A stretch of 64,000 nucleotides of DNA from Podarcis vaucheri (lineage: Eukaryota), in the NCBI GenBank assembly GCA_965113315.1, contig OZ220373.1; one strand, written 5' to 3'. Shown one piece after another: positions 37,565 through 64,000 of this stretch. Every line of letters begins with the position of its first letter. Position 1 is the first letter of the stretch. The position numbers and the translations under genes were made by a program. The notes under the pieces were generated by a model that saw only the letters and a program-made list of their open reading frames with translations, was not told the origin of the DNA and did no database searches.

Positions 37565-37933
<369 letters not shown>

Positions 37934-56962: not shown

Positions 56963-57016
56963 CTGCCTGTTACGTTCATCCATAATCCTTGTGATCTGAA
57001 TCTTTTTTCTCCCCAT
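56963..57016 (-). CDS. MEF2C: MEF2C first coding exon, coding part (MGRKKIQITRIMDERNRQ)
   Basis: Reverse complement reads GGGGACT ATG GGG AGA AAA AAG ATT CAG ATC ACA AGG ATT ATG GAT GAA CGT AAC AGG CAG, then a gtaggt donor. 54 nt, phase 0. This is the N-terminus of the MEF2 MADS box. Confidence 0.98.
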
Positions 57017-62647: not shown

Positions 62648-63446
62648 TGTCAGGGCTGCCACCCAGTCCCAGCTCACATAGGACCAAGTCCGCCAGCGTT
62701 CACTTTATAAGAGTCTTTATTAAGTTACAGGTTTCATTTCCGAACTGCAGCGTGCAGCTCTACACCTTCTGCCCTAGGTCGGCGAAGACCCGTCTGAGTC
62801 CCCGCCTCTTGCACACCAGCTTAATACCCTAGCCTTGCTCCACCTCCTTCGCCTCTCCCTACGTCTCTGGGTCCTTCTGCCCCCCTGGGCCTCCTCCCTT
62901 CTACTCTCCTCTGACGCTGACCCCCCTGATCCTTCTGCCTCCTTGCGGCGGGCTTTAGGACCTGGCTCACTCTCCGGGCTGCTTACTGCTCCAGCTTCCG
63001 CTGCATTTGAACTTGGCGCGCGCGCCCAACTCTCTACTTTCCTCTTAACCGTTGCCTCGCTCTCTGAGGAGGGCGTGACCACCCCTGACTCGTGCCCTCC
63101 CTCCTGCTGACAGCCTCCGGAACCCGATGCCTGTCTACCTTCCTCCCTGCTGCTCTCAGTCTTGAGCGTGGGTCCCGATTTCCAGCTGCTGCCGCCCTCA
63201 GTTATGAGCGTGGGTCCCGACTTCCAGCTGCTACTCTCTGAATCTCCTCTGTTCCCTTCCTCCTGGGGTGTCCCCCCGGATCCCCCCCTTGCTCTGCTCA
63301 CTGGGGCTCCCTTTTGGGAGTCCTCTGACTCACTGCTTAGGCTTGGAGATCTCGGGTCGTCATCATCACTCATTTTCCCTTCGGATTCCTCCCCCTCGCT
63401 CTCTGCTTCCTCCCTTCTCTGCATCTCTGCTCCTGAACCCCTGACA
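62648..63446 (-). mobile_element. 3' LTR (799 bp) of the Gypsy/chromovirus element
   Basis: Perfect 8-bp terminal inverted repeats TGTCAGGG...CCCTGACA, polypurine tract directly upstream, TATA-like TATTAA at 62821-62826 and AATAAA at 62716-62721 (minus strand). The sequence switches abruptly to GC/CpG-rich at 62648. Confidence 0.88.
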
Positions 63447-64000
63447 TCCATCCCCCCCTCGAAGCCCCCCCTTCCCCCCTCCCCGCTTTCAGGTGTGGGT
63501 GCTGGGTGCTCCATCATCACGGGAGGGAATGCCGGATACAGTTCGCTCCCCGTGGTTGGCCGCCAACTGAAGACCTCCGAGTCTTCCTCCTCGCGGTCGC
63601 CGACGTTGACCTGTTCCGCTTCCATCTCTGTACCGCCGTGCTCGAACCCAAGGTCCTCCCCGAACACGTCCATGTCAGTCTCTGCGTCGGTCGCTCGACC
63701 TGGCATCTCCAGCCACTTCCGGCGCCATTGCTCCTCCGGTCGATCGTCCCACCAATACGAGGTGTCTGACGCCGAACCCGCCGGCGATCCGTCTGGGGAA
63801 CGGGTGCTCAGTGCGGGTTCCCCGTCCGAGTCGAATCCATGGAACGTGCTGGAAGAAAGTGTGGGCGTGAACAACCAGTCGTCGAAGAAGCTCGCTGGCA
63901 TGGGTCTGTGTGGGAAAAGGGCATGAAACTCGTCCTTGAGCAGGGGTTCCTCCAAAGCGTAGTCTGGCACCCAGCTATTGGCGCTGGCCCGGGTGCCCTC
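62774..64000 (-). CDS. C-terminal end of a chromoviral Gypsy Pol: integrase chromodomain end plus a long acidic tail; open at the window edge
   Basis: The frame is open from 64000: EGTRASANSWVPDYALEEPLLKDEFHALFPHRPMP fits the SWVP..L..FH..FP..P end of chromovirus integrase chromodomains. No stop until 62774. The GTG start at 63970 in the ORF track is internal. Confidence 0.85.
   Translation of the reverse strand, partial: EGTRASANSWVPDYALEEPLLKDEFHALFPHRPMPASFFDDWLFTPTLSSSTFHGFDSDGEPALSTRSPDGSPAGSASDTSYWWDDRPEEQWRRKWLEMPGRATDAETDMDVFGEDLGFEHGGTEMEAEQVNVGDREEEDSEVFSWRPTTGSELYPAFPPVMMEHPAPTPESGEGGRGGFEGGMDVRGSGAEMQRREEAESEGEESEGKMSDDDDPRSPSLSSESEDSQKGAPVSRARGGSGGTPQEEGNRGDSESSSWKSGPTLITEGGSSWKSGPTLKTESSREEGRQASGSGGCQQEGGHESGVVTPSSESEATVKRKVESWARAPSSNAAEAGAVSSPESEPGPKARRKEAEGSGGSASEESRREEAQGGRRTQRRRERRRRWSKARVLSWCARGGDSDGSSPT
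63447..63484 (-). other. Polypurine tract of the Gypsy element
   Basis: GGGGAGGGGGAAGGGGGGGCTTCGAGGGGGGGATGGA abuts the TGTCAGGG LTR start. Confidence 0.85.

Follow-up and report, generated by a model that had tools for sequence, protein, structure and literature searches.

The window, the whole 64,000-nt stretch of Podarcis vaucheri DNA that was analysed, contains on its minus strand the 3' portion of a chromoviral Gypsy element that is self-priming and 6,650 bp long (Table 1). As the initial annotation had supposed, position 64,000 was followed by the remainder of a single pol frame and by a matching 5' LTR. In the neighbouring stretch (L021), a gag ORF preceded a pol ORF of 1,575 codons in the -1 frame, which reached from the window to G000:C31:~35160650 and encoded protease, RT, RNase H, H2C2, rve and Tf2-1 SH3 domains in addition to the chromodomain. 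With gag, then PR-RT-RH-IN, two LTRs and 5-bp TSDs in siblings of the window copy, the element is a Ty3/Gypsy LTR retrotransposon; its chromodomain lay at the integrase C-terminus after the GPY/F region, as in chromoviruses. The 5' LTR of the window copy itself (G000:C31:~35161300) lacked the terminal TG, differed at three of its first five bases and was without a TSD. Three sequencing runs of unknown kind (contigs only) showed even cover. The window also held a MEF2-type MADS-box gene on the minus strand (start MGRKKIQI at 57016; 37565-37933, Pfam SRF-TF); the element is oriented like this gene and lies 5.6 kb upstream of its start codon, perhaps within a 5' intron.

Table 1. Features of the element within the window.
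Feature	Position	Strand	Remarks
3' part of pol ORF	62777..64000	-	408 codons in the window; 1,575 stop-to-stop overall
Chromodomain, C-terminal half	63911..64000	-	Fold retained; N, R and T in place of the three cage aromatics (HP1 alignment)
TIM/IBM-like motif	63818..63889	-	FFDDWLF helix, 8-residue Ser/Thr linker, FHGF, acidic DSDGE
SYWWDD..WRRKW segment	63713..63760	-	Conserved, predicted helix, specific to the window clade
PPT, read in frame as GEGGRGGFEGGMD	63447..63484	-	G runs slip in older copies
3' LTR	62648..63446	-	799 bp, TG..CA ends
Translated U3 and first bases of R	62777..63445	-	223 residues, low complexity, 9% hydrophobic
In-frame 42-bp tandem duplication	63149..63232 (approximate limits)	-	Distinguishes 799-bp from 757-bp LTRs; youngest subfamily
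KRKV	63035..63046	-	Conserved across subfamilies
Arg-rich stretch, then W-S-x-x-x-(V/L/I)-L-x-W-C	62813..62878	-	Sister clade: Arg-rich + LLCW
Self-priming site AGACGGGTCTT	62785..62795	-	Complementary to PBS, co-varies across subfamilies, pairs in fold
pol stop codon	62774..62776	-	TAG; in other subfamilies at the same place as TAG, TGA or TAA
AATAAA polyadenylation signal	62716..62721	-	Constant distance to stop

The element family is young and abundant. Paired LTRs of the window subfamily diverged by about 0.06%, and a first look at the wider family gave about 3,400 candidates. The frame ran to the same end in each of the 11 full-length copies taken from the top LTR matches. Among the best 150 spacer matches, the pol frame had 1,575 codons in 106, 1,561 in 9 (the 2 checked both lacked the 42-bp U3 repeat) and 1,376 in 3 (the 1 checked had a PPT slip).

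A slippery heptamer, GGGAAAC or GGGAAAT, was present at the gag/pol overlap (L021 ~5375) in 69/69 full-length copies. The -1 frameshift site of PEG10 is the same, and Gag-Pol would be made by a -1 frameshift at GGGAAAC. The PBS was complementary to 10-11 nt of the LTR, with co-variation across at least 5 sequence types, and we infer that this self-priming site marks the transcript start, near 62795. The self-priming group of the lizard element goes by the label "sushi". Priming of this kind is described for Tf1 and its relatives in the accessible part of PMC4600332.

The minus-strand pol frame was open through the PPT and into the LTR, giving a tail of 378 residues after the chromodomain LFP, of which 223 were encoded by the LTR; AATAAA started 52 nt past the stop. 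The initial annotation had described such a stop-free frame to about 50 nt before AATAAA and a tail of about 370 residues, and in both respects it agreed with what was found. It had spoken of the coding stretch as U3; judged by the self-priming site, the transcript starts near 62795, so that the stop lies about 18 nt inside R, not in U3, and all of U3 is coding.

Under dinucleotide shuffling, the LTR part stayed free of stops in 0.15% of cases and the whole tail in 0.01%, while the spacer alone was weakly significant (5%). In the remaining two sense frames, the LTR part contained 7 and 14 stops. In a sample partly picked for out-of-phase copies, 53/155 loci were out of phase at the PPT, mainly through G-run slips. 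Such copies were rare in the youngest subfamily (1/37) and did not group together on the tree, where 35 changes were counted as against 36.8 after shuffling (P 0.26); this fits repeated damage after insertion.

Selection was analysed on loci from searches with P. muralis relatives, of which 241 were placed, 211 had both LTR ends and 155 remained after flank de-duplication, a step that collapsed array-flanked copies. Counting was done on nine natural representatives drawn from 64 unbroken copies, with three copies omitted for local shifts or a large deletion. For U3 the dN/dS was 0.31 (0.25-0.39) when read as pol, and 1.34 and 0.80 when read in the other frames. The integrase core had a ratio of 0.09 and the chromodomain one of 0.07; the motif that follows the chromodomain stood at 0.16 and the spacer at 0.36. 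Because dS was as high in U3 (0.80) as in the integrase core (0.62) and only 0.07 in the PPT, U3 is constrained as protein and not only as DNA, while the PPT is constrained at the DNA level. In a DNA alignment of 153 loci, the ratio was 0.29 between subfamilies and 1.10 for private post-insertion variants; a post-stop control gave 0.55 in the pol frame, below the expected 1, from few sites and with no interval. Stop columns in U3 were absent from the pol frame in 12/12 subfamilies; the other frames had 2-7 and 6-13.

The shared length differences in spacer and U3 were +15 (109 loci), -54 (30), +6 (44) and +9 (7), all in frame, with two U3 segments measurable in only 35 loci; a -1 common to 55 loci was located after AATAAA. 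Within subfamilies, 4 "shared" non-triplet U3 indels appeared at first binning, and the two left in U3 after re-binning proved to be one slip of the reference copy and one G-run slip in two copies. Copies L153 and L261, which had no 42-bp duplication, kept the stop. These results confirmed that the U3 frame evolves as protein under purifying selection. The initial annotation had proposed a coding U3, naming as tests a ratio below 1, U3 indels in multiples of 3 and a conserved stop; neither of its refuting conditions applied, since no stop stood directly after the chromodomain, the indels were not frame-random and the substitutions were not neutral. Its description of an acidic, Ser-rich extension ending in a basic motif also held, and the basic motif was conserved. 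Its TATA-like box was rejected as a conserved element, as TATTAA varied with Leu codons across subfamilies. The cage loss, the FxGF motif, the sister clade and the array enrichment described below were no part of it.

The Pfam Chromo match had an E value of 5e-4, below the cut-off. With the chromodomain model as query, Foldseek recovered HP1/CBX chromodomains that superposed to within 1.0-1.4 A across some 47 residues, with 4.5e-3 as the best E value. The aromatic cage of type I chromodomains (Y, W, Y) was absent, its positions being N, R/K/G and T/A in 136/136 parsed copies.

Fewer than 10 residues behind the chromodomain stood the motif FFDDWLF-TPTLSxST-FxGF, with a helix predicted over ASFFDDWL. 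The FxGF residues were kept in nearly all loci (F 154/154, G 153/154, F 154/154; x = R, H, Q, L or K). FxGF is short and was noticed post hoc, after looking at the tail; shuffled tails contained F-x7-10-FxGF at 0.3-1.2% and bare FxGF at 3-7%. According to the part of PMC9987994 that is accessible, a TND-interacting motif (TIM) consists of a helix, an acidic or phosphorylated linker of 8-16 residues and an optional FxGF; FxGF is tied to LEDGF and HRP2, and TIMs are transcription-regulatory modules. The spacing F+8+FxGF equals that of the JPO2-M1 and POGZ motifs (solved LEDGF fusions). In the window clade the 8-residue linker is Ser/Thr-rich rather than acidic, with no Asp/Glu, so the match to a TIM depends on phosphorylation. 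A complex prediction for the P. muralis LEDGF IBD and a 37-residue motif peptide scored 0.15 against a mark of 0.34, in a run without alignments and with a tool unproven on peptides. A PDB sequence search with the motif region of a distant relative found nothing relevant.

The rest of the tail was acidic, Ser/Gly-rich and of low complexity, with short conserved blocks. A Pfam search of the tail gave no family, and the ESM Atlas gave only matches at 0.80 or less for the homologue P0006. The KRKV motif is presumably NLS-like.

A search of 1.84 billion representatives yielded distant proteins with a similar tail, and their families were located in the same genome. Identity between this sister clade and the window clade was 70% for RT, 64% for integrase and 26% for the tail. 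It was also self-priming, its PBS being complementary to the 5' end of R, and its PPT was read through in the same phase with the same junction, to a stop 21 nt after the self-priming site. In either clade, then, the stop followed the transcript start by 18-21 nt, while the preceding LTR stretch ranged from 328 to 703 nt, and both tails ended in an Arg-rich run and an L-x-W motif. From 29 unbroken sister-clade copies, 7 representatives, one of which was shifted over an internal stretch, gave a U3 dN/dS of 0.36 (0.26-0.46) versus 1.13 and 1.15 in the other frames. Its motifs were acidic (FWEEEF-GTTDDEED-FVGF); by a loose pattern, at least one motif occurred in 62/68 copies and two in 35/68, and some families had LxGF or FxGW in the first motif. 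The sister-clade LTRs (L324-L339), of 439-484 bp, contained no AATAAA or ATTAAA.

Among the 107 parsed of 147 database matches, F-x6-14-FxGF occurred in 0/95 relatives with an intact cage and in 4/12 with a damaged cage; these four are kin and not independent origins. Six of the 107 (P0027, P0037, P0047, P0056, P0067, P0156), all with an intact cage and P0027 from a fish, had a tail ending in SPE[YF] with the pattern GG.SV(T/M/R)...SPE(Y/F), which suggests, at the protein level, short same-phase read-through into the LTR, fish included. The entries P0022 and P0031 comprised Zootoca proteins that had a decayed chromodomain and an acidic tail, and a Vipera element that had an intact cage and a 118-residue acidic/basic tail with no FxGF.

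Young copies of the window clade were enriched in the terminal 3 Mb of six large contigs, with 48/133 found and 6.5 expected (the 133 being the best 150 spacer matches after tandems were merged and other contigs dropped). Degenerate TTAGGG arrays surrounded 20/40 of the sampled terminal copies (13/20 and 7/20). Since the array flanks of these copies were only 78-86% alike, the insertions were independent. About two thirds of the young copies lay elsewhere, including the window copy, which is in no array. Array-flanked loci numbered 30/232 without flank de-duplication and 2/155 after it, a de-duplication artefact. Local target-site preference was rejected as the cause of the bias, the profile odds being 0.7-1.1 in 56 de-duplicated copies. 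A young family of the sister clade was not enriched at contig ends (1/20 versus 36/112, Fisher p 0.013). As the clade with the better FxGF motifs is dispersed, the array bias must stem from something else; likewise, the dispersed sister clade shares the read-through, so the read-through itself is not a targeting signal.

The arrays, at the ends of C1, C17, C18 and C19 (G000), had about 55-63% perfect hexamers and were seen at spots over 1-2.4 Mb (L366, L368, L370, L376, L378, L380, L382), in both orientations on C19. Telomere-like repeats mark the centromeric regions of lacertid acrocentrics in the accessible text of PMC7290949 and PMC4529230; by this analogy, the arrays are probably centromeric. 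A 41-Mb contig (G000:C41), possibly the W chromosome, carried a large share of the older copies of both clades.

Compared with the Tf1/sushi-type chromoviruses, as far as the available text of PMC4600332 describes them, the lizard element has the same gag, PR-RT-RH-IN pol, GPY/SH3, chromodomain, TG..CA LTRs, 5-bp TSD and self-complementary PBS; it differs in having no cage aromatics, 378 additional residues and a Pol that covers all of U3. Entry of Pol into the 3' LTR, which the initial annotation had set apart from typical chromoviruses as coding for a possibly undescribed module, has been published for plant CRM group A, some Galadriel families and Beta Bingo1-4 and 7 (PMC3059260, PMC3605345, accessible parts). 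The lizard ORF resembles CRM group A (PMC3059260, accessible part) in this entry. Unlike CRM group A, which has a CR motif instead of a chromodomain and primes with tRNA-Met, the lizard element retains the chromodomain and is self-priming, and only about one third of its young copies are near array ends; unlike both CRM group A and Beta Bingo, it has a vertebrate host and a low-complexity extension over the whole U3 (223 codons). With a chromodomain situated upstream of the PPT and a PBS that is self-complementary, the element is, judged by these features, a self-priming chromovirus and not a CRM member.

The motif shares with the TIM/IBM of JPO2, POGZ, KMT2A and IWS1 (PMC9987994, accessible part) a short helix ending in F, a linker of 8-9 residues, FxGF, an acidic flank and disorder. 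It differs from these host motifs in standing on a retrotransposon Pol and, in the window clade, in its Ser/Thr-rich linker, and its binding is a prediction. Read-through into the LTR has a plant precedent. The literature searched, outside Repbase, Dfam and most subscription journals, described neither the family nor lacertid centromeric Gypsy elements; nor did it mention a vertebrate chromovirus in which the full U3 is coding, or a transposon or retrotransposon integrase with an FxGF/TIM motif.

Retroviral ORFs overlapping U3 are also known from HIV nef and MMTV sag, which are separate genes on spliced RNAs; U3 coding is common to them and the lizard element, whose U3 encodes the Pol C-terminus. 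Lentiviral integrase binds LEDGF/HRP2 through folded domains, and the lizard element would share this host tether by means of a linear motif of host-partner form. The use of LEDGF/HRP2 by lentiviral integrase is reported in the accessible part of PMC9987994.

We consider it somewhat probable that the 378-residue extension, selected as protein, is likely a disordered tail that docks to the host, that its FxGF motif, by prediction, binds a TND of LEDGF/HRP2 type, and that the extension likely tethers the integrase instead of the cage-less chromodomain. The tail would remain on integrase as a docking arm, phosphorylation of Ser/Thr may supply the acidic charge of the linker, and the FxGF, judged by its likeness to host motifs, would bind the TND of LEDGF or HRP2 type. 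Chromatin tethering would likely move from the chromodomain to the FxGF tail, the basic motifs could aid nuclear import or chromatin binding, and insertion may be biased toward TTAGGG arrays by parts of the tail that are peculiar to the clade rather than by the FxGF motif. It counts against docking that tethering by LEDGF/HRP2 predicts insertion in gene bodies, and the young copies are enriched at array ends instead. A wider proposal is doubtful, though conceivable: that a lacertid lineage swapped histone-methyl reading for LEDGF/HRP2 mimicry, convergently with lentiviruses, and that its full-U3 branch is a vertebrate counterpart of plant centromeric retrotransposons, targeting telomere-like arrays.

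The location data bear on an unlikely alternative, in which the tail is a centromere-targeting module comparable to the CR motif and the FxGF likeness is incidental. Integration would be steered into the degenerate TTAGGG arrays by the chromodomain in a new role, by the SYWWDD helix or by the part coded in U3. The terminal enrichment, the independent insertions in TTAGGG arrays, the target-site profile that does not favour arrays and the sister clade that is not enriched all suit it, as do the telomere-like centromeric repeats of lacertids (PMC7290949) and the same layout in plant CRM group A (PMC3059260), both in their accessible parts. However, some two thirds of the young copies are elsewhere, the arrays are centromeric by cytogenetic analogy only, retention instead of targeting may account for the bias, and the conservation of F-x8/9-FxGF in two clades is left unexplained. 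In a further, quite improbable reading, the element protease cuts off the extension to give a separate accessory protein serving nuclear import, a chromatin tether or regulation of the element's own transcription via elongation factors. Long low-complexity linkers separate the motifs and TIMs are transcription-regulatory (PMC9987994, accessible part), but the first motif begins less than 10 residues after the chromodomain, and no cleavage site was identified.

The remaining explanations concern nucleic acid. Read-through may matter mainly for the RNA: frameshifted ribosomes that reach to about 50 nt from the poly(A) signal would leave a shorter effective 3' UTR and weaken nonsense-mediated decay, the residues being largely filler; such a mechanism is known from retroviruses. 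The near-constant place of the stop in both clades, despite the varying LTR stretch, and the tolerance of U3 for in-frame indels (dN 0.25-0.43) are in keeping with this, but stop avoidance alone would give a dN/dS near 1, not 0.3, and short motifs are conserved despite synonymous change, so we rate it as very improbable. Hardly any credence is given to the open frame as a by-product of purine-rich, T-poor LTR DNA. T makes up only 11% of the LTR part and many older copies have lost the frame through slips in G runs, but this reading is refuted by the shuffles, the frame-specific dN/dS, the in-frame indels and the stop conserved in two clades, and the out-of-phase copies did not cluster on the tree.

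Insertion-site choice by vertebrate Gypsy elements is barely known, and this family gives two testable leads: a short motif by which, if the docking reading is true, a retrotransposon exploits the docking surface of LEDGF/HRP2 that HIV is known to use, and a bias, parallel to that of the plant CRM elements, for arrays that are probably centromeric. The element also shows an entire U3 evolving as coding sequence for protein alongside its role as promoter, which matters for LTR evolution and for annotation. On the plus strand, an antisense frame of 271 codons (63111-63926), open in 11/11 young copies, is probably a shadow of the coding frame.
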